A DNA stretch of 64,000 nucleotides from Clostridia bacterium (GTDB lineage: Bacteria; Bacillota; Clostridia; Christensenellales; UBA1242), in NCBI GenBank assembly GCA_017444785.1, contig JAFSVX010000010.1:4648-68647 (forward strand), in the 5' to 3' direction. The position numbers were made by a program, and so were the translations under genes. Positions 27,291-61,801 of this stretch are shown one piece after another. Numbering within the stretch: position 1 is the stretch's first letter; each line of letters starts with the position of its first letter. The notes under the pieces are model-generated. The model made no database searches and was not told the DNA's origin. It saw only the letters and a list, made by a program, of their open reading frames with translations.

Positions 27291-28202
27291 TTACTCATCA
27301 ACTTTATTTTTATGTTTTTTGTTTTTATAATTAAGTTTAAGCCTGCTGAGTTTACGTGAAAGCCTTGTTATTTTGAACGCTGGTCTTTCTGTCAGGTATC
27401 TTACGATCAAATCTTTTTGCGACATAACCGCATCATATCCTGCCTGAACCATAGCATCTATGTCGCCAATTTTGGATGAGCTGAACATCTCAAGCCCCGG
27501 CAAAATAAGCAGGTCTGCAAACTCCAATCGCTTTTGGACATTCGCTTGCATAACCATTCCAAGTGAAGCCCTGAGAACATCAAGGGTTTTCATAGACTCT
27601 ATGCCATGACCACGACCACGGTTGACATCAATCGCAAAGACAACATTTGCCCCCATATTTCTGACAACATCAGCAGGCACATTGTTTTTAAGCCCTCCAT
27701 CAACAAGGTGCATGTCCTCATATTCCACCGGCTTGAAAATCCCCGGCACAGCCGAACTTCCACTGCAAGCTTTTGCAACACTACCACCTTTGATTTCCAC
27801 CTCAATACCTTTGCGTATGTCCGTTGCAACGACCGTAAATGGAATCTTCAGCTCTGAAAACATCAAATCTTTTTGAAAGATTTTTTTAAGCATTGACTCT
27901 ATATTTTCTGAATCAGATGGACACCAAATAAAAAAGCTGTTTTTAATATCGCGCACACGAAGTTTTTTAACTTCCTCAAGCATCTGAGCACTTGTAAAGC
28001 CTGCCGCATAAAGAGCGCCAACAATACTGCCAGCACTTGTTCCTGCGGTAAAGTCCGGTTTCACTCCAAGTTCTTCAAAAGCTTTAATGACACCAATATG
28101 CCCAATGCCACGAAGTCCACCACCGCCAAAAGCCACGCCAAGCCGAACTTTTTTGTTTACTATAATTTTTCCACTACTGTCAAACTTTTTGCGCCCAAAC
28201 AA
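27291..28202 (-). CDS. Patatin-like phospholipase
   Basis: GGGGLRG oxyanion motif, GTSAG nucleophile, DGG. Preferred TTG start 28200-28202 has a GGAGAA RBS 7 nt upstream. The ORF-track start 28256 would overlap a TGtATAAT -10 box (28227-28234). Confidence 0.8.
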   Translation of the reverse strand: MFGRKKFDSSGKIIVNKKVRLGVAFGGGGLRGIGHIGVIKAFEELGVKPDFTAGTSAGSIVGALYAAGFTSAQMLEEVKKLRVRDIKNSFFIWCPSDSENIESMLKKIFQKDLMFSELKIPFTVVATDIRKGIEVEIKGGSVAKACSGSSAVPGIFKPVEYEDMHLVDGGLKNNVPADVVRNMGANVVFAIDVNRGRGHGIESMKTLDVLRASLGMVMQANVQKRLEFADLLILPGLEMFSSSKIGDIDAMVQAGYDAVMSQKDLIVRYLTERPAFKITRLSRKLSRLKLNYKNKKHKNKVDE

Positions 28203-28418
28203 TGCAATTTTCTCCTCTATATAATTATTATACAATAAAACTTCAACTAAAATCAAACCAAGTACACATTTTTAACAAATTGTATTAAAAATAATTTATT
28301 TATTCAATGAATATTCCAATTTTTTATAATATAACCAATGAAAAGTTTAAATGCACTACTAAATATTACTTATACCACTATTTTCAAGCCACATAAAAAA
28401 TTAAATATTTTATAAGAA

Positions 28419-28450
28419 CAAAAAAATCCAGGTAAATTATATTACCTGGA
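28419..28450 (-). terminator. Intrinsic terminator at the distal end of the rplQ downstream spacer
   Basis: Minus strand TCCAGGTAA-tataat-TTACCTGGA followed by T8. Confidence 0.6.
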
Positions 28451-28855
28451 ACAAAGGAAAGTGAGATATACGGCAACAACAACACTCCGCATATCTATAA
28501 GTATTATAACATGAATACTTAAATATTGCAATACCCTTTTTAAAATTTCTTTAATTTTTTTACAAATATTTCAGCCCGCTCGCTCACTCGCTGACCTACC
28601 CACCGCATCTTCAGTTATCTTTTTGTTTTATCCTTTAAAAAACCATTTATTATACGCAAAAATATCTGACTAACATTTTTATAATACTACCCAATTCAAA
28701 TAACATTGTTTAAAGACGAACTTATAGTGATAATTATTAAACAAAATCCGTATATGGTTAAATAAAAATGCAGAAGAAGGCATAAAACATATAAAATTTT
28801 ATTTATTCATATAACGTTGTTTAAAGGCGAAAATTGACGATTAGACAAGGCTCAT

Positions 28856-28904
28856 AAAAAAATCCAGGCACGACTTTATTTTCATAAATGAGTGTTTGGA
28901 TTTT
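28856..28904. repeat. Conserved-core hairpin module, copy A
   Basis: A-run, ATCCAGGCAC, core GACTTTATTTTCATAAATGA, GTGTTTGGAT, T-run; two G.U pairs on the plus strand. Confidence 0.8.
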
Positions 28905-29016
28905 GAATATGTTTATTCAAATAACGTTGTTTAAAGGCGAAAATTGTGCTGTTGACTTTTATATTTATTCATATAACGTTGTTTCAGGGTGCAAGTTTGC
29001 GTATATAACAAGGCAA

Positions 29017-29070
29017 CAAAAAATCGCGACGCTCGATTTTATTTTTCATAAATGAGTGTGTCGCGATTTC
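29017..29070. repeat. Conserved-core hairpin module, copy B
   Basis: ATCGCGACGC, core TCGATTTTATTTTTCATAAATGA, GTGTCGCGAT. Confidence 0.8.
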
Positions 29071-29120
29071 GTAGTTAACGCAGTTATTTAATTCACGATT
29101 TACTCAATTCAAATAACGTT

Positions 29121-29248
29121 GTTTAAAGGCGAAAATTGTGCCAATAACGAGGCACAAAAAAATTCCAACGCATGATTTTATTTTCATAAATGAGTGTGTT
29201 GGAATTTTTTTAGTAACATAGTTAGTGGTGCAATTTTCGCCTTTAAAC
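29121..29248. repeat. Complete nested palindrome unit abutting and overlapping the rplQ stop codon (contains hairpin copy C, 29156-29211)
   Basis: Outer arms GTTTAAAGGCGAAAATTGTGCC (29121-29142) and GGTGCAATTTTCGCCTTTAAAC (29227-29248): 22/22 pair on the plus strand with two G.U. Inner ATTCCAACGC/GTGTTGGAAT flanks the conserved core. Confidence 0.85.
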
Positions 29249-29752
29249 CAATTCGACAATAGCAAGTTGTGCATTATCCCCACGTCTTACAGAAGTCTTA
29301 ATAACGCGAGTATATCCACCAGCTGTGCCTTTTTCAGTTGCACGGTTTACATATTTTGGTGCAAGATCTTCAAACAATTTTACGATAAGTGGATATTTGA
29401 TATCCCCTTTTCTTGCCTTGAATGCAGCTTTTTTCTCGCCCTTAACACGTTGTTCTTGGCGATCTTCAAGCATACCAAGTAACTTTCTTCTTGCAGCAAG
29501 TTTTGCAGGACCATCTTTTGAAATTGTAACTTTCTTTTCTTTTCCGCTGGCATCTTTAGTAGCTTTTTCTTCAGTTACAACATCTTGATAGTTCTTCACA
29601 GCCAAAGTGATGCATTTTTCAGCATATCTTGCAGCTGCTTTTGCTCTGTCAAGAGTGGTTTCTATTCTGCCATACCAAAGTAAATCACTTGCAAGTCCGC
29701 TTACCAGTGCAAGTCTTTGGTCTGTTGGTTTACCTAATTTTTGTGTATTCAT
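29243..29752 (-). CDS. rplQ: 50S ribosomal protein L17 (169 aa, with internal/C-terminal expansion)
   Basis: QRLALVSGLASDLLWYGRIETTLDRAK... and GGYTRVIK; last gene of the alpha operon. Confidence 0.95.
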   Translation of the reverse strand: MNTQKLGKPTDQRLALVSGLASDLLWYGRIETTLDRAKAAARYAEKCITLAVKNYQDVVTEEKATKDASGKEKKVTISKDGPAKLAARRKLLGMLEDRQEQRVKGEKKAAFKARKGDIKYPLIVKLFEDLAPKYVNRATEKGTAGGYTRVIKTSVRRGDNAQLAIVELV

Positions 29753-29762
29753 AATATTCTCC

Positions 29763-30716
29763 TTATTCTTCTCTGGCTTTCAGACTTAATCCAAGACCTT
29801 CAAGTTTATTGATAACTTCGTCAAGAGATTTACGTCCAAGATTTTTAACTTTAAGCATATCATCTTCAGTTCTGCGGATAAGATCTTCAACGATGTTGAT
29901 TCCTGCACGTTTTAAGCAGTTGTATGAACGAACTGACAAGTCCATATCCTCAATACTCATAGTCATAAGTTTGTGTACTTTATCTTCTTCACGGCTTACA
30001 AGAATTGATACATTTTCCATTGATGCAACAAGCTCAACATAAAGGTTGATGTGTTCATTCAATAATTTTGCAGCAAGACTTACAACTTCTTTACCTGAAA
30101 TTGTGCCATTTGTTGTAACATCCAAAATAAGCTTATCAAAGTCAGTGTTTTGACCTACACGAGTGTTCTCAACTTCATAAGAAGCTCTGCGAACTGGTGT
30201 GAAGATACTGTCAATAGCGATATATCCGATTGGAAGTGAAACATCTTTATTGTGGTCAGCAGAAACATAACCACGGCCTCTTCCAACCAAGATTTCCATA
30301 TCAAGAACACCATCAGCTTCAAGAGTGCAGATATACATTTGAGGGTTAAGGATTTTTACCTCATCATCTTCTTCAATGTCCGCAGCTGTAACAACGCAAG
30401 GACCTTTTTTCTTAAGATGCAAAACCTTTTTGAATGAAGGTTTAGTATCTTCAGTTTTAACAGCAAGACCTTTCATGTTTAAAACGATCTCAGTAACGTC
30501 CTCTTTAACACCTTTAACGGTTGTAAATTCATGAGAAACGCCTTCAATTTTAATGTTTGTAACAGCAGCGCCAGGAAGACTTGACAAAAGCATTCTTCTG
30601 AGAGCATTACCAATGGTAACACCAAAGCCACGCTCAAGTGGTTCCAAAACAAATTTACTTGTTACACCGCCATCTTCTTCTATACATTCAATTCTTGGTC
30701 TTTCGATTTCTAACAT
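29763..30716 (-). CDS. rpoA: DNA-directed RNA polymerase subunit alpha
   Basis: 317 aa; LERGFGVTIGNALRRMLLSSLPGAA and C-terminal LSVRSYNCLKRAGI. Confidence 0.97.
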   Translation of the reverse strand: MLEIERPRIECIEEDGGVTSKFVLEPLERGFGVTIGNALRRMLLSSLPGAAVTNIKIEGVSHEFTTVKGVKEDVTEIVLNMKGLAVKTEDTKPSFKKVLHLKKKGPCVVTAADIEEDDEVKILNPQMYICTLEADGVLDMEILVGRGRGYVSADHNKDVSLPIGYIAIDSIFTPVRRASYEVENTRVGQNTDFDKLILDVTTNGTISGKEVVSLAAKLLNEHINLYVELVASMENVSILVSREEDKVHKLMTMSIEDMDLSVRSYNCLKRAGINIVEDLIRRTEDDMLKVKNLGRKSLDEVINKLEGLGLSLKAREE

Positions 30717-35837: not shown

Positions 35838-36275
35838 TTAGTTCTCCTTTACGCTTGTAAATTCAACAAGGTGTTTTACTACGAAAATCATACCTCTTGT
35901 GCAAGCGTTATCTGGTTTAACGGTCTCACTTCCGATTTTTGTAAGTCCAAGAGCAGCAACTGTTTTTTGTTGTTTCTCAAGTCTGCCACTTACACTTTTA
36001 ACAAGCTTAATCTTAAGCATAGGACCTTTAACTTTCTTTTCTGCTTTAGGTGCTGCAGCTTTAACTTCTGCTTTAACCTCTTCAGCAACAGTTTTAACTA
36101 CTGGAGTTTCAACAACTTCTTCCTTAGCAGCAGTTGTCTTTTTTACTGCAGGTTTTGTTGCAGCTGCCTTTGCTGTTGTTTTCTTAGCAGCTTCAGTCTT
36201 AGGAGCAGCTTTCTTAGCAGGAGCTTTTGCTGTTGTTGTTTTTGCTTTTGTAGCTGTAGTTTTTGTTTCTGCCAT
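35838..36275 (-). CDS. rpmD: 50S ribosomal protein L30 with 85-aa Lys/Ala/Thr-rich N-terminal extension
   Basis: C-terminal 60 aa ([26 protein letters not shown]...) is L30. The long form starts at an ATG with a GGAGGAAG RBS, 11 nt after the rpsE stop. Confidence 0.85.
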
Positions 36276-46339: not shown

Positions 46340-47905
46340 TTAAAACTTCAAAAGTTGCATCAATTTATCTTTCTCAATAGCCATAAGGAAAATACCAAGT
46401 TTTGGACCTTGACCTTTGCCAAGAAGAAGATTGTAAAGAATCTCAAAAAATCTCTTTTGAGTTTTCTTTAATACATCAGGTTCAAGGTTAAGGTATTTGA
46501 CAACTGCGTAAAGCTCTGTCATAAGCTCATCGCTTGTTGCAAAGTCTTTGTTTACAAGCTCAATGGTTTTTGCAACCCAAGATTTTTCATCGTCATTAAG
46601 AGTTGCATAAAATTCATTGTTTCTGTCCTCAAGCAAGTTAACTTGATATTCTTCACCATAGTTTTCCACCCAATACTCAGCTTTTGCAAGTCTTTCTTTA
46701 TAATATTTTGTTGTGGTGTCGATATTTTCTTTTTTCATCAACTTTTCAAGCATCTGCTTATTGAAGTTGTCAATAGGAAGGAATGTTGCAAGGTTGCTGA
46801 ATGATGGATAATTTAAATAATCCTCGGTAACACCTGTAAAATCAAGAATGTCTTTATTGCCTTGGTCAATTCTGCCATCGAAATACATTTTTACCCAACG
46901 GTCATATTCACTGTAATAGCGGATAACATCATTGTCAAAAGCAAGTGAAAACTGTTGCATAGGCTTATATTTTGAATAGAACCAAAGAAGTAAATGTGCA
47001 TCATAAACATTCAGCATCTTAGTTATTGTGAGAACCCCACCTTTTGAGGAACTCATCTTCGCTCCGCCGCCTTTAATACCTATAAAGTTATAAGGTTCAG
47101 CAACCGGAGGCTCAAATCCGAAGATTTTTCTTGAAACGACTTCGGCAACATCATGGCTACCATTTTTTGTGAAGTGATCCATACCACCACTTTCAAATGT
47201 AACATTTTCTTGTTGCCAACGCATTGGCCAGTCAACTTTCCACTGAAGCTTGATATCTCTGCAAGTTTCAACATTAACAGTCTCTTCATGACCACAAGCA
47301 CATCTGTAAGTTATATCCCCTGTCGCATCATCATAGTTTACAATCTTTGCTTCTTTTCTACATTTTGAGCAATACACATTTGCAGGGAAAAAGCTGTCGC
47401 GTTCACCAAGCTCTGCATCTTGAGTTCGGAAGCTGTCGATGATGTCGAAAATCTCTTTTCTTTTTTCAAGTGACAGGCGGATTTTATCCACATATCTTCC
47501 ACTTCTATACTCTTGTGCCTGATATCTGAAATCAACTTCATGTTCGACATCAATCCCCATCTTTTTAAGTTCACCCTTAAAAACAGTTTCAAAATAATGA
47601 GCATAGCTTTCATTTTCAGAAAAAGGACTTGGCATATCTGAATAGTTCATACCAATATATTTCTCATATTCAGCAGGGATATCTGCAGGAACTTTACGGA
47701 ATCTGTCAAAGTCATCAAATGAGAATAAAAACCTTACTTTTTTTCCAAGGTTTTTGAGAGCCTTTGCAACAAAGTAAGGTGTTATAACCTCTCTGAAATT
47801 TCCAATATGAATAAAACCAGAAGGACTTACACCTGTTGCAATTGTGTAAACCTCTTCATTTGGTCTTTCGTTTATTATTCTTTGTGCAATATCATATGCC
47901 CACAT
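46340..47905 (-). CDS. lysK: Lysyl-tRNA synthetase, class I (archaeal type)
   Basis: GVSPSGFIHIGNFRE (HIGH-like HIGN) and KMSSSKG (KMSKS). ATG 47905 has an AAGGA RBS; the ORF-track start 47965 is less likely. Confidence 0.85.
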   Translation of the reverse strand: MWAYDIAQRIINERPNEEVYTIATGVSPSGFIHIGNFREVITPYFVAKALKNLGKKVRFLFSFDDFDRFRKVPADIPAEYEKYIGMNYSDMPSPFSENESYAHYFETVFKGELKKMGIDVEHEVDFRYQAQEYRSGRYVDKIRLSLEKRKEIFDIIDSFRTQDAELGERDSFFPANVYCSKCRKEAKIVNYDDATGDITYRCACGHEETVNVETCRDIKLQWKVDWPMRWQQENVTFESGGMDHFTKNGSHDVAEVVSRKIFGFEPPVAEPYNFIGIKGGGAKMSSSKGGVLTITKMLNVYDAHLLLWFYSKYKPMQQFSLAFDNDVIRYYSEYDRWVKMYFDGRIDQGNKDILDFTGVTEDYLNYPSFSNLATFLPIDNFNKQMLEKLMKKENIDTTTKYYKERLAKAEYWVENYGEEYQVNLLEDRNNEFYATLNDDEKSWVAKTIELVNKDFATSDELMTELYAVVKYLNLEPDVLKKTQKRFFEILYNLLLGKGQGPKLGIFLMAIEKDKLMQLLKF

Positions 47906-48043
47906 TTTTACAGTATCCTTATCTTTAGATATAAGTAATATACCCCTTGCACGCGAATTTGTCAACTCTTTCTTGAAATAGCCTGAATTTCTAACTCATA
48001 AATCAAAAAATTTAAAAATATACTTTTCATATAAAGGAGCATT

Positions 48044-56903: not shown

Positions 56904-59223
56904 TTATGAATTCTTTATATATTTATTATACCCTGCTCTGTCACTTGTCGTTTGAGTGAATGAATCTGTGATATATGTTCCAACGCTTGTGATTGTGTCT
57001 TTCACATAAACTGTTGTGGCATTTGCGAGCAAATAGGAATCTGATGAATTTAGACCTGCTATCGTTGATGAATCTATTATTACTTCTGTAAGGCTACTGC
57101 AACCCAAAATTGCGCTATCTCCTATGTTGATCAAACCACTTCCTATTGTTATTTTTGTAAGACTACTACAACCGTTAAATATCCAACCAGCAATACTTGT
57201 TACACTATCCGGAATTGTAATTTCAATAAGTGAACTGCAACCTTCAAATGCAACAGTTCCAATACTTGTTAAAGTATTTGATAATATGACTTCTGTAAGA
57301 CCACTGCAACCGTTGAAAGCAGAAACTCCAATGCTAAGTACACCACTTGGAATATTTATGCTTGTAAGTCCAGTACAATTTTGAAATGCATTATTACGAA
57401 TAAACCTGGTATTTCCATTTATTCCACACGATGTTATAGAATTATTTTTTGCATAAATAAGCAATATATATGCATTTATATTGTTTCCAAGATATTTTGC
57501 ATTATCATATTCATTACAAATCAATGATGTGCAACCATTAAATACATAATCTCCAATACTTATAAGGCTGTTTGGAATCGTAACATTTGTAAGTGAACTG
57601 CAATCCCTAAATACTGAATCTCCTATACTTGTCACACCTTCTGGTATAATAACACTCGTCAGGTCTGAACAACTCCAAAATGCACACTCTCCAATGCTTG
57701 TCACACTGCTTCCAATTGTCACACTGCTTACTTTTGGGCTGTATGATGAGTTTGTGACATAAAACAAATTTGCCGGTATGCTTTCAACATTATTACCAAA
57801 TACAACTCCAATTCCATCCCCGTTTGCGCCTGCCCTATAGAATAAATTTTGTGGTACTGAGGCTATGTTAATTGCATTATAATATATGGTTTCTAGACCA
57901 TAACAACCACGGAATGCACCTGTGTCAATGCTTGTCACACTGTCTGGGATTGTTATACTTGTCAGTCCACTACAACTGCTGAATCCCCAAGATTTAATCC
58001 TTGTCACACCATCTGGAATTCTCAATGCCCCAGTAAGCCCGCTACAAGAAGAAAATACGCCATTTTCAATTCTTGTCAAACCACTTCCAAATTTCAGACC
58101 TGTAAATCCTGTGCAACCACCAAATGCAGAATCTTCAATAACTATCACACTGTTTGGAATTGTCAATGTCCCTGTAAATCCTGTGCAATGTAGAAATGCA
58201 CTCCATCCAATTTTTTTAATACAACCGGGAATTATCAATGTCCCAGTAATCTCACTGCAGTTTTGAAAGGCACCACCTTCAATGCTTGTCACATCTTGAT
58301 TTTCATGTTGCCTTGGAATAACAACTTCACCAGTTGGTGTTCCTTGTTTACTTACAAAATGCACATTATTACTTATATAAAAATATAATTTATCAAGTGT
58401 TGCAGTTTTTGTATAAAGTCTTACTGTTTCAAAATTATTTACTGTGGCACTTTGAACTGCCGTTGGAGTATAAATTGTGTCACCGTCTTCCAGATACTGT
58501 GTGCATTCTGCATCTTTGAAATATCCAGGACAATTGTTATAATCAAGTGGTAAAACATCTGTGTCGTAAACAAACTTACCATCTGTTAAATCCAATGCTG
58601 AAACCGCAGCAACTTTTCCATCAACATAATATACAACATAACTGTCATAAAGTTGTGAACTGTTGCTGTTTATTGTTGTCGTTGTTGTTTGTCCTTCAAT
58701 AACTGTTCCACCTGCATTATATATCGCAGCACCAGTTTCCGCTGCATTTCCGACAATCGCCCCGCCATTAAGATTAACTGTTCCACCTTCTTCAACATAG
58801 ATTGCACCACCACAAATTGCTTGGTTAAACATTATTGTTCCGCCATTCATGGTAAAAGTACCACCACTTGCAACATATACTGCCCCACCATATGTCGCTG
58901 ATGAACCTTTATATGTTCCACCATTCATCACATATGAACTTCCTGCACCAACATAAATTGCTCCGCCCTTTTCAGACATTGGGGCAAGTGCTGTACCATT
59001 TTCTTCAACTTCCTGCGCTGATGCATAATAAACACCAGGGATAGTTCTATCCTTGGTGTCCTGCTGGTTCTCAACCACTGTTGGTGATGTGGTTGCCTTG
59101 TTGTTATTAACAATTTTTACGGAAAAAGTAAAGATAAGCGCAGCAACAACTATCGCTATACTTATTAGTATCTTATTAAGCTGCCCCCCCCCCGATTTTT
59201 GCTGTTTTTACCTTGTTTTTCAT
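56904..59223 (-). CDS. BspA-like LRR surface protein (paralog 2); N-terminal signal-anchor exon out of frame at a poly-G tract
   Basis: ORF 56904-59078 (724 aa) has the same head (GGAIYV repeats) and tail (AGYNKYIKNS) as the 1295-aa paralog. RBS GGAGAAGG plus ATG 59221-59223 encode MKNKVKTAKI, then G10. The main frame continues QLNKILISIAIVVAALIFTFSV. Confidence 0.75.
59184..59193 (-). repeat. Homopolymeric G10 tract (C10 on plus strand) in the 5' coding region
   Basis: Counted directly: C at 59184-59193. G9 would be in frame. Confidence 0.95.
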
Positions 59224-59442: not shown

Positions 59443-59516
59443 TGTATATAACAAGGCATAAAAAAATTCCAACGCTCGATTTTATTTTCATAAATGAGTG
59501 TATCGCGATTTTGTAG
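59443..59516. repeat. Conserved-core module, copy D (arms no longer complementary)
   Basis: Close to 28999-29074 by eye (roughly 85-90 percent). However the 5' arm ATTCCAACGC is of copy-C type and the 3' arm GTGTATCGCGAT is of copy-B type. Confidence 0.75.
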
Positions 59517-59570
59517 TATATACATATAACGTGAATTAAGGTGAAAATTTTGATGCAGAAGAAGGCACTA

Positions 59571-59620
59571 AAAAATCCCAGGCAAGCGCATATTTACATA
59601 CGTAACTGTCTGGGATTTTT
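59571..59620. repeat. Hairpin module, copy E (variant core)
   Basis: ATCCCAGGCA/TGTCTGGGAT arms (one G.U on plus) around AGCGCATATTTACATACGTAAC; preceded by ATGCAGAAGAAGGCA, also seen at about 28768. Confidence 0.7.
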
Positions 59621-59648
59621 ATAGTAACAAATTTCTTTTTCACGTCAA

Positions 59649-59790
59649 TTCATACAAATAACGTTGTTTAAGGTTTAGAAAATGTGCAATAAGAAAGAAA
59701 CAAAAAAGTTCCACGCCCGATTTTACTTTCGTAAATGAGTGTGTGGAACTTTTGCAGTTTCTGCACTTAGTGTGCGTTTTGTAAGCCTTA
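59649..59790. repeat. Complete nested palindrome unit abutting the rplA stop codon (copy F)
   Basis: Box TTCATACAAATAACGTTGTTTAAGG; outer arms 59670-59701 / 59757-59789; inner AGTTCCACGC / GTGTGGAACT around CCGATTTTACTTTCGTAAATGA. Confidence 0.8.
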
Positions 59791-60468
59791 AACTTTGACT
59801 TTAATTCCTGGGCCCATTGTAGAAGCAACAACTATACTCTTTAAATATGTTCCCTTTGCAGCTTGTGGTTTTGCTTTAACAATTGCATCAAGAAGCACAT
59901 CAAAGTTCTCTTGAAGTTTCGCAGCACCAAAGCTCTTTTTACCGATAACGCAGTGAATGATACCAAATTTGTCAAGACGATACTCAACTTTACCAGCTTT
60001 GATATCCTTTATTGCTTTTGCAACGTCAGGTGTAACTGTTCCACTTTTTGGGTTTGGCATAAGACCACGAGGTCCAAGAACTCTTGCAGCTCTACCAACA
60101 ATACCCATCATGTCAGGTGTTGTAACGCAGGCGTCAAAGTCAAGCCAACCTTCTTTAACGATTTTATCAACCATTTCTTCAGCACCAACATAGTCAGCAC
60201 CTTCAGCTTTGGCGATATCAGCCTTATCACCTTTTGCGATAACAAGGACTTTCTTTGATTTACCAGTTCCGTTTGGAAGAACTATTGAACCTCTTACTTG
60301 TTGGTCAGCGTTCTTAGGGTCAACGCCAAGCTTAATATGAACTTCAATAGACTCATCAAATTTTGCAGTTGCAGTTTCAACAGCAAGGGCAAGACCTTCG
60401 TTCACATCATACTGCTTTTGAGCTTCGATTTTTGAAGCAGAAGCGTTATAATTTTTTCCGTGTTTCAT
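59788..60468 (-). CDS. rplA: 50S ribosomal protein L1
   Basis: 226 aa; [15 protein letters not shown]... conserved L1 sequence. Confidence 0.97.
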
Positions 60469-60914: not shown

Positions 60915-61148
60915 ATTCAATTCTCCTTTAAGTTTTTCTGTGGTCTGTGTGAGGCATACAAAATTTACCTCTGCCACATATATTTAAAACATTTAGCTTA
61001 CACCCTACTGCAAGTCAAATGATTTAAAACTAAATAATTTATTTCAATCCATTCTCGAATATAAATATCGATAACGGGATTTAAAGGCTAAATTCAGATT
61101 AAGAACAATCTTATTTACTAGAATTCATAGATTTAATTACGCATTTAG

Positions 61149-61264
61149 GGCGTCAGAATGGTGCAATAAGAAAGAAACAAGAAAGCTGAACGCACGACTT
61201 TATTTTTATAAACGAGTGTGTGAAACTTTCGCAGTTTCTGCACTTAGTGTGCCGTTATCACGCC
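61149..61264. repeat. Nested palindrome unit abutting the nusG stop codon (copy G, inner stem decayed)
   Basis: Outer arms GGCGTCAGAATGGTGCAATAAGAAAGAAAC / GTTTCTGCACTTAGTGTGCCGTTATCACGCC; core GACTTTATTTTTATAAACGAGTG; ends 1 nt before TAA 61265-61267. Confidence 0.75.
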
Positions 61265-61801
61265 TTAAATTACTTCGATTTGGGCGAAGTCAAGGTCAAC
61301 CGGCGTCTGACGTCCAAACATCTCTACCGAAACCTTGCATTTTTGATTAGCAGTGTCAACTGAAAGGACATCACCAACGAAACTCTCAAGTGGACCAGCA
61401 ATAACTTTAACTTTATTGCCAACCTCAATTTTGAGGTCAATAACAATCTTTTCAAGTTGCATCTTTCTTACTTCCTCATCAGGAAGTGGAAGAGGTCGTC
61501 CCGCAGGGCCAACGAATCCAGTAACTCCACGAGTGTTTACAATTGTGTGCCACAAATTGTCAGTATAGCGCATCTTGATAAACACATAGCATGGAAACAT
61601 TTTTCTTTGCACAACTTTTTTCTTGCCATTTTTCTCTTCAATGGCATCTTCCATAGGTATCTTTACTTCAACAATGAAATCTTGAAGTTTGTTATGGTCG
61701 ATTGTCTTATAAAGATTCTCTTGAACCATACTTTCATAGCCAGAATAAGTGTGAAGCACATACCACTTTGGATCTTCTTTTAAAACATCACTATCACTCA
61801 T
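61265..61801 (-). CDS. nusG: Transcription termination/antitermination factor NusG
   Basis: 178 aa; WYVLHTYSGYE NGN domain and C-terminal KOW. Confidence 0.95.
   Translation of the reverse strand: MSDSDVLKEDPKWYVLHTYSGYESMVQENLYKTIDHNKLQDFIVEVKIPMEDAIEEKNGKKKVVQRKMFPCYVFIKMRYTDNLWHTIVNTRGVTGFVGPAGRPLPLPDEEVRKMQLEKIVIDLKIEVGNKVKVIAGPLESFVGDVLSVDTANQKCKVSVEMFGRQTPVDLDFAQIEVI

Follow-up and report, generated by a model that had tools for sequence, protein, structure and literature searches.

What occupies the long spacer beside the ribosomal protein gene rplQ in an uncultured Clostridia bacterium, and can the hairpins repeated in it be explained as ordinary transcription terminators? The locus lies in a 64,000-nt stretch of contig JAFSVX010000010.1, which was analysed as a whole and is referred to below as the window. 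A first-pass annotation had described five boxes and three hairpin modules in the spacer; we found all of them where it had placed them, the arm sequences that it quoted were correct, and the arms vary among the copies while their complementarity is kept. In our analysis, the spacer holds one intact and several broken copies of a non-autonomous repeat that resembles a MITE (a transposable element of the miniature inverted-repeat kind): it is small and non-coding, has terminal inverted repeats and is dispersed in copies with presence/absence differences. The element is probably a mobile, MITE-like interspersed repeat that bears a terminator.

That the array lies 3' of rplQ was correct, but the gene is on the minus strand, so that "downstream of rplQ" runs toward lower coordinates and the orientation in which the array had been read is antisense to the gene. 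By the limits of the open reading frames (ORFs), the spacer between rplQ and the patatin gene spans 28257-29242; a patatin start near 28197 is more probable, and the spacer would then be ~1045 nt long. Exact matches to the box core, TTTAAAGGCGAAAATTG, stand on the + strand at 28820, 28930 and 29122, and its 17 nt have four exact copies in the window, one of them inverted. With up to three mismatches, the core has five matches in the window against 1.3 expected, a number reached in none of 100 shuffles, and degenerate boxes stand at about 28695 and 28968 (repeat families D1 and D2). The inverted copy of the 18-nt box core, 100% complementary, lies at 29231-29248 and spans the rplQ stop codon. 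Because it pairs with the box of the nearest unit, this unit (unit 1) is a 128-nt imperfect palindrome, 29121-29248, and the hairpin module is located at its tip. The outer arms of unit 1 (29121-29148 and 29221-29248) are 28 nt long and 89% complementary, and the last codon and the stop codon of rplQ (29243-29245; GTT TAA) lie inside the outer stem. The inner, terminator-like hairpin spans 29156-29211, with the conserved apex at about 29170-29197, and the predicted folding energy of the whole unit is -62.4 kcal/mol on the + strand versus -51.2 kcal/mol on the - strand (z about -10). A covariance model built from 24 copies found seven copies in the window, at three loci and all on the + strand. 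The features of these loci are as follows.

29243..29752, - strand: rplQ (L17, 169 aa; ORF, PF01196 homologues)
29121..29248, + strand: unit 1, full-length, 128-nt imperfect palindrome (inverted repeats; covariance model, 84 bits)
29108..29138, + strand: box of unit 1, made up of TTCAAATAACGTT, which is not part of the palindrome, and then of the 18-nt outer 5' arm GTTTAAAGGCGAAAATTG
29156-29181 / 29186-29211, + strand: hairpin I2, the module in unit 1 (inverted-repeat search)
28968..29098, + strand: unit 2, older copy (covariance model, 84.7 bits; comparison with locus L054)
29021-29042 / 29048-29069, + strand: hairpin I8, the module in unit 2 (inverted-repeat search)
28916..28958, + strand: unit 2b, solo box and 5' arm without hairpin; the arm is 100% complementary to 29231-29248
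28806..28915, + strand: unit 3, box, 5' arm and inner hairpin (covariance model, 67.5 bits)
28859-28879 / 28884-28904, + strand: hairpin I11, the module in unit 3 (inverted-repeat search)
28695..28725, + strand: degenerate solo box, TTCAAATAACATTGTTTAAAGACGAA (repeat family D2, inverted repeat I17)
59443..59536, + strand: chimeric copy (covariance model, 72.3 bits)
59552..59641, + strand: weak variant copy (covariance model, 25.3 bits, E = 0.0018)
59666..59793, + strand: full-length element abutting rplA (BLAST against the window; covariance model, 75.5 bits)
59788-60468, - strand: rplA, with its stop codon (59788-59790) inside the outer stem of the element
61143..61270, + strand: full-length element abutting nusG, between nusG and rplK (covariance model, 63.4 bits)
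61265-61801, - strand: nusG, with its stop codon (61265-61267) inside the outer stem of the element

Only the gene-proximal unit of the rplQ array keeps both outer arms. Unit 2 has a decayed 5' arm (GTTTCAGGGTGCAAGTTTG), an inner hairpin at 29017-29070, the conserved 3' motif GTAGTTAACGCAGTTA and no outer 3' arm; it matches the intact rplQ-proximal unit of Clostridiales bacterium MAG-R002 (L054). In unit 3 the outer 3' arm is missing, whereas the box and arm at 28806-28836 are 100% complementary to 29231-29248, and the inner hairpin (28856-28904) includes two G.T pairs; G.T wobble pairs are present on the + strand in each of the three hairpins. The element at rplA is preceded by the same AAATAACGTT box (59655-59665) and has a predicted energy of -58.8 kcal/mol on the + strand versus -38.7 on the - strand, the corresponding values for the nusG element being -49.3 and -34.3 kcal/mol. 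The copy at 59443-59536 combines a 5' stem arm of the unit-1 type (ATTCCAACGC) with a 3' arm of the unit-2 type (GTATCGCGAT), which do not pair; from these arms, it looks like a recombinant with the crossover within the conserved apex. The weak variant at 59552-59641 keeps the AAGGCAC and TAGTAAC flanks as well as the A-run, stem and T-run, and differs in the apex. Tandem Repeats Finder detected no regular array in the window. The rplQ array, which had been described as a modular repeat, is therefore best understood as an irregular, mosaic pile of one intact and several truncated copies.

An intact element is a non-coding, imperfect palindrome of 125-150 nt (128 nt and 28-39% GC for the copies in the window). 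Long terminal inverted arms enclose a conserved internal loop (CAAGGC facing GTAACGCAG), a variable inner stem of 10-16 bp and a conserved apex, (C)GAT-TTTAY-loop-RTAAA-TGAGTG. What had been taken for a loop of roughly 20 nt is actually the internal loop together with a 5-bp A/T mini-stem (TTTAY/RTAAA) closed by 4-5 nt. The only small ORF in the element starts with ATG, ACG or ATA depending on the copy, and the lack of a conserved start codon indicates that the element is non-coding. The terminal inverted repeats found at rplQ are present also at rplA and nusG and in other genomes. The outer arms differ among the loci and are complementary within each of them (rplQ, GGCGAAAATTG; rplA, GGCTTACAAAACG; nusG, GGCGTGATAACGG).

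The proposal that the arms covary around a conserved core was upheld by the covariance analysis of the 24 copies. With a structure set by hand, standard pairs made up 82.8% of the cells, as compared with 64.9% in shuffles and 38-57% when the partner columns were slid, and double changes were observed in 98 cells versus 36 in shuffles. In the inner stem, 13 of the 17 pairs were changed on both sides, which confirms covariation in this part of the element. Complementary arms in a palindromic DNA element do not, however, prove a function as RNA by themselves.

The two strands of the element are not equivalent. For whole elements, the fold of the + strand had z-scores between about -5 and -11, and in 28 of 31 copies, from both Clostridia and Bacteroidota, this strand folded better than the gene-sense strand. 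The difference was about 10 kcal/mol (at least 5 kcal/mol in 25 of the 31) and held with RNA as well as DNA parameters. It arises because the + strand has G.T(U) pairs where the other strand has A.C mismatches. A G.U pair at alignment columns 33-62 is conserved in 17 of the 24 copies, the outer stem contains a conserved tandem U.G/G.U, and the rplA and nusG arms have independent wobble pairs. From cytosine deamination, which affects the non-template and the leading strand more often, the opposite asymmetry would be expected. Since the observed asymmetry runs counter to known mutation biases, some process apparently selects the fold of one strand. Its target could be DNA, single-stranded or cruciform, while the element is being mobilised, or an RNA without a visible promoter.

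Copies in other genomes and probable movement of the element

The first pattern used to search the genome collection was loose, and most of its matches (at least 114) were due to chance; true relatives were separated by BLAST and by eye. Copies were found in Clostridiales bacterium MAG-R002 (CAKJZE01; loci L049, L054 and L111) and in Clostridia RGIG4762 (L024 and L110); the carriers include a culturable species, Anaerophaga thermohalophila. The element follows rplQ in relatives whose L17 is 85-87% identical to that of the window (L129 and L131), yet with other arms, and it follows rpoC, rpsP, an rluA-like gene and others in related Clostridia metagenome-assembled genomes (MAGs). In Bacteroidota, the genome scan revealed copies in at least about ten genomes, and about a dozen genomes or contigs carry them overall. 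The layout of these copies is the same: an outer stem, CAAGGC, an inner stem, (C)GATTTTACTTTTGTAAATGAGTG, the other inner arm and AGTAACGCAG. A metagenome scan with a stricter pattern returned nine contigs, six of them with real copies (five distinct) and one of these in a tandem cluster. In this cluster (L121, positions 1-560 of the Bacteroidota-type metagenome contig PDWI01042888.1) the units are arranged head to tail with a period of about 130 nt, and two copies with the exact core are spaced at 393 nt and have degenerate copies in between, indicating that clusters of the element are not peculiar to Clostridia. The stricter pattern found no copy in viral contigs, and hence no sign of a link to phages. 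The covariance model also recovered copies that the search pattern had missed, so that the conservation of TAAATGAGTG is not solely a product of that pattern.

The first-pass annotation had raised the possibility that the repeat belonged to a catalogued family, and none was found to match it. Rfam 15 gave no match at the gathering score in the whole window, only chance-level microRNA matches in 27500-30500 at E ≤ 10, and no match to the element in nine other loci that carry copies. It is thus neither the L17 downstream element nor another catalogued RNA. A literature search with the core sequence retrieved only unrelated primers. Exact-protein look-ups returned nothing for rplQ and, for rpsK and rplK, only the same strain or contigs ending before rplQ.

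Over 128 nt, a length that takes in the outer arms, the copy at nusG shares 87.5% identity with a MAG-R002 copy located after an rluA-like pseudouridine synthase gene. In L133 (L17 83% identical), the TAA of rplQ is followed by an ordinary terminator and no element is present. A near-identical copy after a different gene, together with an empty rplQ site, indicates that the element moves, and its dispersal over several loci and genomes bears out the earlier suggestion of a repeated, mobile-element-like sequence. After rplQ, MAG-R002 has two units, and the window has three units and two solo boxes. The proximal, intact unit of MAG-R002 corresponds to unit 2 of the window, with the same ATCGCGAC stem and the same flanks, and the window has an extra unit of ~150 nt (unit 1) between unit 2 and rplQ. 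This comparison suggests that unit 1 uses the resident 3' arm and that the 5' arm of unit 2, now partnerless, has decayed. The array may have been built by local duplication, by insertion beside an older copy and by recombination between copies. Movement would probably rely on a trans-acting enzyme that recognises the apex as folded on one particular strand, and such an enzyme would explain both the conserved apex and the strand-asymmetric fold in two phyla. At both ends of eight gene-proximal copies TA is found, often as TTAA or TTTAAA, which is reminiscent of the TA duplication made by IS630/Tc1-type elements; these sequences are, however, palindromic.

Gene ends, transcription termination and competing explanations

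In the Clostridia clade the element is located directly at the 3' ends of genes, where it usually overlaps the stop codon and has one constant orientation relative to the gene. The + strand, on which the search pattern is written, was antisense to the abutting gene at ten independent gene ends in Firmicutes-type genomes (in the window, rplQ, rplA and nusG; in L049, rpoC and another gene; in L111, an rluA-like gene and a SpoIIP-like one; in L024, rpsP; and in L110 and L122, a single gene each). Two genes of L049 that converge at a distance of 1.5 kb are both accompanied by the element, and it is antisense to either of them, indicating that the orientation bias follows transcription and not replication.

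In eight of nine AT-rich Clostridia copies, a run of six or seven A precedes the stem on the pattern strand, and the gene-sense strand accordingly has the 10-bp stem followed by U6-7 in its RNA; after the stem, the pattern strand has only three to four T, except in unit 1, which has seven. Because the transcript of the gene carries the inner hairpin and then six to seven U, the sequence suggests that the element is most likely the intrinsic terminator of the operon, a role that fits the transcription-unit ends at rplQ, rplA, nusG, rpoC and rpsP. The inner stem is capped by the conserved internal loop and mini-hairpin, unlike the short loop of a terminator, whose sequence need not be conserved. 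The first-pass annotation had argued that a simple terminator would be insufficient, and indeed it leaves the conserved apex, the outer arms and the scattered copies unaccounted for; termination nevertheless belongs to the answer, on the gene-sense strand with its U6-7 tract. The outer stem covers the stop codon also at the rplQ orthologues of L129 and L131. Since the 3' arm lies beyond the U-tract, it could pair with the stop region only in read-through transcripts, and the arms complementary to the stop region fit either gene conversion or a pairing function in such transcripts.

The copies in Bacteroidota occur in both orientations and have no U-tract; in L003 and L008 they stand just upstream of start codons. 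In these two loci the element ends 6-15 nt before the start codon, in an orientation compatible with driving the gene. On the better-folding strand the apex of Bacteroidota copies reads TACTTTTG (L081, 1918-2009; L115, 1423-1514), which we take to fit the Bacteroidetes -7 motif TAnnTTTG, with TTTC 21 nt upstream. Against a mobile promoter in this phylum, the motif is absent from the Clostridia copies and from two Bacteroidota copies, and TACTTTTG follows from the composition of stem and loop.

Several observations weigh against a mobile, terminator-bearing repeat as a full account of the element. No transposase was found among the 30 large ORFs of the window scanned with Pfam, as the first-pass annotation had stated, nor beside the other copies examined. 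The apex and not the termini is the most conserved part, which is the opposite of the pattern for a transposon moved by a DDE transposase. The positions in the rpoC copy that are homologous to the TA flanks read TTTCAA...TTGAAA; they are inverted and not direct, so the TA, TTAA and TTTAAA flanks may be part of the terminal inverted repeat. At about eight of the ten gene ends the element lies on the stop codon or no more than 3 nt from it. Random insertion into AT-rich spacers would not give this placement, which would be compatible either with gene conversion or with a pairing function in read-through transcripts. The strand that bears the terminator is the weaker-folding one, and termination leaves the asymmetry unexplained. 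A simple terminator scan (loops of 3-8 nt) flagged none of the hairpins, because their loop exceeds 8 nt. Finally, a 26-nt stretch of box and arm is identical in units 1, 2b and 3 while the adjoining sequence is only about 50-65% alike, an identity that needs gene conversion or selection.

The alternative that survives best, although we consider it unlikely, is that an HUH-type nuclease (a Y1 transposase, a RAYT-like protein or a MOBV-type relaxase) mobilises or processes the element as single-stranded DNA or as a cruciform. The apical mini-hairpin would be bound and the + strand nicked beside GAGTGTG, the palindrome would aid extrusion of the apex, and termination would be secondary. Such handling would agree with the strand-specific fold, which is seen in both phyla and with DNA parameters and includes the conserved G.T at columns 33-62, and with conservation of a hairpin and its adjacent unpaired bases instead of the termini. 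The apparent crossover of the chimeric copy (59443-59536) falls inside the apex, and the layout of the apex is like that of hairpin IR3 in the origin of transfer (oriT) of plasmid pMV158, CACACACTTTATGAATATAAAGTATAGTGTG/TT, a likeness judged by eye and with the spacing off by 2 nt. On the other hand, no HUH or relaxase gene was found in the window by the Pfam scan or next to any copy examined, and GAGTGTG is partly paired in the inner stem. In a blastn search against 72,556 plasmids the window copy had no match and a Bacteroidota copy matched only at E ≥ 0.03. The orientation of the element, moreover, follows the gene and not replication, which is not the pattern known for IS200/IS605 insertion sequences. 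In its broadest form this proposal would make the element an undescribed class of chromosomal palindromes, common to Bacteroidota and Clostridia, handled as folded single-stranded or cruciform DNA by an HUH-type nuclease related to relaxases or Y1 transposases, homing to gene 3' ends and supplying both stop codons and terminators to core genes, for example rplQ, rplA, nusG and rpoC; we regard a claim of that breadth as improbable.

It is also quite improbable, in our view, that the element is a cis-acting RNA device of the 3' untranslated region (3' UTR), in which the distal arm pairs with the stop-codon region only in read-through transcripts. The duplex of ~28 bp would be cut (e.g. by RNase III) or would block the stop codon, as a fail-safe against read-through from very strongly transcribed operons. 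Such a device would account for the outer stem over the stop codon at rplQ, rplA, nusG and the rplQ orthologues of L129 and L131, and for a 3' arm located after the U-tract. It would also account for the three downstream arms in the window, every one of which has kept 100% complementarity to the rplQ stop region although the sequence around it has diverged, and L131 independently has four such arms, each after a plain terminator. REPs within 15 nt of a stop codon have been reported to affect translation (PMC12306157), which lends the idea some precedent. The gene-sense RNA is, however, the weaker fold, with C.A mismatches where the other strand has G.U, and the conserved box reaches 8-13 nt past the pairing region. 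Nor does the device suit the Bacteroidota copies, with their two orientations and, in L003 and L008, their places before start codons, and the copies at non-orthologous genes in related genomes point to mobility and not to evolution in place.

The first-pass annotation had also considered a family of small RNAs. In such a scheme, the + strand would encode small antisense RNAs overlapping the 3' ends of core genes, with the box as promoter and the hairpin as terminator. The better fold of the + strand, the conservation of the box just 5' of the hairpin and the T7 after the hairpin of unit 1 are compatible with it. Most copies, however, have only T3-4 on this strand, no consistent sigma-70-type promoter was found in or before the boxes, and no Rfam family matches. 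An RNA ending at the T-run would exclude the outer 3' arm, yet this arm stays complementary, and the Bacteroidota copies have neither box nor T-run. We therefore consider antisense RNAs very unlikely. A type I toxin-antitoxin system of the Sib/Ibs kind, with a hydrophobic gene-sense peptide of unit 1 (MKIKSCVGIFLCLVIGTIFAFKQRYLN; a 27-aa ORF from the apex ATG through the unit 1 box, within a 59-aa ORF at 29104-29283) as toxin and the + strand RNA as antitoxin, was ruled out by its start codon, which varies among ATG, ACG and ATA from copy to copy and is missing in Bacteroidota, and is hardly credible given that there is no Shine-Dalgarno sequence, that unit 2 is frameshifted and unit 3 truncated, and that retention of the frame up to 'KQRYL' in the rplA and L054 copies follows from nucleotide homology without indels.

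The named classes of repeats that had been put forward do not fit either. REP/REPIN sequences with a RAYT are 20-40 nt long, GC-rich and marked by a 5' GTAG, whereas the element is 125-150 nt long and AT-rich and has no GTAG. PATEs derived from IS200/IS605 have two different subterminal hairpins, no terminal inverted repeats and an insertion site 3' of a fixed 4-5-nt target; here the ends are inverted copies of each other in one long palindrome. Integron attC sites and clusters of attC sites lacking an integrase (CALIN) were rejected, since the stem base GTTTAAAGGC...GCCTTTAAAC has the reverse of the arrangement R'' RYYYAAC, R' GTTRRRY, and there are no ORFs between the units. On reading the sequence, no site for integration host factor, parS or dif fitted.

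Other features of the spacer and the window

The same spacer contains, at 28420-28531 on the minus strand, what looks like a stand-alone small-RNA gene. Its predicted promoter (TTGCAA, 17 nt, TATAAT, with an upstream TG) agrees with the consensus at 10 of 12 positions and precedes an RNA of ~78 nt, which would consist of a hairpin at its 5' end, a stretch rich in C and U that stays single-stranded (UCACUUUCCUUUGUU, resembling an anti-Shine-Dalgarno sequence) and a terminator of canonical form (28450-28427 and T7), with a folding energy of -25.4 kcal/mol (z = -5.2). The candidate RNA had no Rfam match and did not occur in MAG-R002 or in any of the other loci compared; the 13-mer AAAAAAATCCAGG is common to its terminator and repeat unit 3. 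At 28573-28615, a GC-rich island of ~45 nt (CAGCCCGCTCGCTCACTCGCTGACCTACCCACCGCATCTTCAG) stands out from the ~25% GC of the spacer. It showed no significant fold on either strand and had no match in the other loci.

Downstream of rplQ in L131 (10510-11798; L17 85% identical), a spacer of 1.3 kb contains four repeats of a unit of ~290 nt, in which a plain terminator (AACACAGGATAATAAATCTTGTGTT and a T-run) comes first and then an arm (GGCACAAACTATGCCCTCTAGAGG) that is complementary to the region of the rplQ stop codon; Tandem Repeats Finder detected no regular array in this locus. In this clade, the DNA after rplQ seems to be a hot spot for arrays of this kind. In L135 (10510-10660; L17 77% identical) a different, GC-rich repeat is found after rplQ. 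It forms tandem short hairpins, each preceded by GAATTATACTC (REP-like), and further downstream there are several repeated blocks that are also rich in GC.

Two ribosomal proteins of the clade are of unusual size. L17 has 169 aa in the whole clade, and nearly all of the closest 120 homologues listed have the same length; a typical bacterial L17 has about 115-130 aa, and judged against this length the protein presumably contains a lysine-rich internal insertion. The protein encoded in the L30 position, between rpsE and rplO (window 35838-36275; L124 5491-5925; L135 3325-3960), has 144-211 aa and no Pfam match in some relatives, and 115-133 aa with a match to Ribosomal_L30 in others, so that it is extended and variable. 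A run of ten C at 59184-59193 (poly-G on the gene strand) is located ~105 nt upstream of a gene for a BspA-type leucine-rich-repeat surface protein (56904-59078, minus strand). In another sample of the same organism (L127) this run reads CACCCCCCCC, which makes it a candidate phase-variation tract. The lysyl-tRNA synthetase encoded at 46340-47965 on the minus strand is of the class I type (PF01921, E = 3e-107), which is uncommon in bacteria.

Relation to known repeat families

We place the probably mobile, terminator-bearing repeat as a new family within a kind of bacterial repeat that is already familiar; it is common to uncultured Clostridia and Bacteroidota. In function it is closest to SPRITE, a repeat interspersed in pneumococcal genomes that looks like a Rho-independent terminator and is over-represented near the 3' ends of genes (2011, PMC3049150). 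Both are small and AT-rich, fold like terminators near gene 3' ends and have presumably been recruited for termination; both form clusters together with other repeats, and in neither of them is a transposase known or a target duplication established (PMC3049150 for SPRITE). Compared by their descriptions, SPRITE differs in its 18-bp duplex with a long U-rich tract, in terminal repeats that are only AAAA/TTTT and in being confined to S. pneumoniae and S. mitis, whereas the present element is a palindrome of 125-150 nt with long outer arms, a conserved apex and stop-codon overlap, found in two phyla.

If this reading is true, it is a mobile repeat and not home-grown terminators that defines where the most strongly expressed operons end in a whole clade of uncultured Clostridia, among them the ribosomal protein operons, nusG and rpoC, and the SPRITE idea of co-opted mobile terminators would extend to another phylum and to essential genes. 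The conserved apex, the strand asymmetry and the placement at stop codons could lead to the mobilising enzyme. The covariance model would improve the annotation of intergenic regions and operon ends in gut and rumen MAGs, and would explain assembly breaks and length variation downstream of rplQ.

The likeness, judged by eye, of the apex to the oriT of pMV158, the substrate of the MOBV1 relaxase MobM, is one of layout: each has the TTTAT/ATAAA mini-stem closed by a loop of 4 nt, then a bulge of 3 nt on its right arm and, after that, GTGTG. In pMV158 the GTGTG pairs with the left arm at the nick and the site is recognised on one strand as an extruded hairpin. The plasmid, however, has one copy beside the relaxase gene, and the element has many chromosomal copies with no relaxase nearby, so we treat the resemblance only as a lead.

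In build, the closest families are the TA-targeting palindromic MITEs: RUP of pneumococcus, Correia/NEMIS of Neisseria and ERIC/IRU of enterobacteria (reviews PMC10969869 and PMC3184786). They are, like the element, non-coding imperfect palindromes of 100-150 bp whose inverted ends allow one long hairpin, scattered over intergenic DNA that is transcribed and with TA on either side; their transcription is shared with the neighbouring genes, whose mRNA they affect. In RUP, Correia and ERIC it is the termini that are conserved, and a corresponding IS630-type insertion sequence has been proposed for RUP, whereas in the element the apex is conserved and the arms vary and covary. BOX of pneumococcus and the BIMEs or REP clusters of E. 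coli offer the parallel for modular clusters, since they too have variable numbers of sub-units in irregular intergenic clusters, some of them near stop codons. The BOX modules (A, B and C) and the 20-40-nt, GC-rich REPs with their RAYT are unrelated to it in size, composition and motif, and its "modules", unlike theirs, are truncated copies of a single palindrome. The element is therefore closest in kind to SPRITE, RUP, Correia and ERIC, and goes beyond the known families in an apex conserved across phyla, a fold asymmetry that favours one strand and its placement at stop codons.

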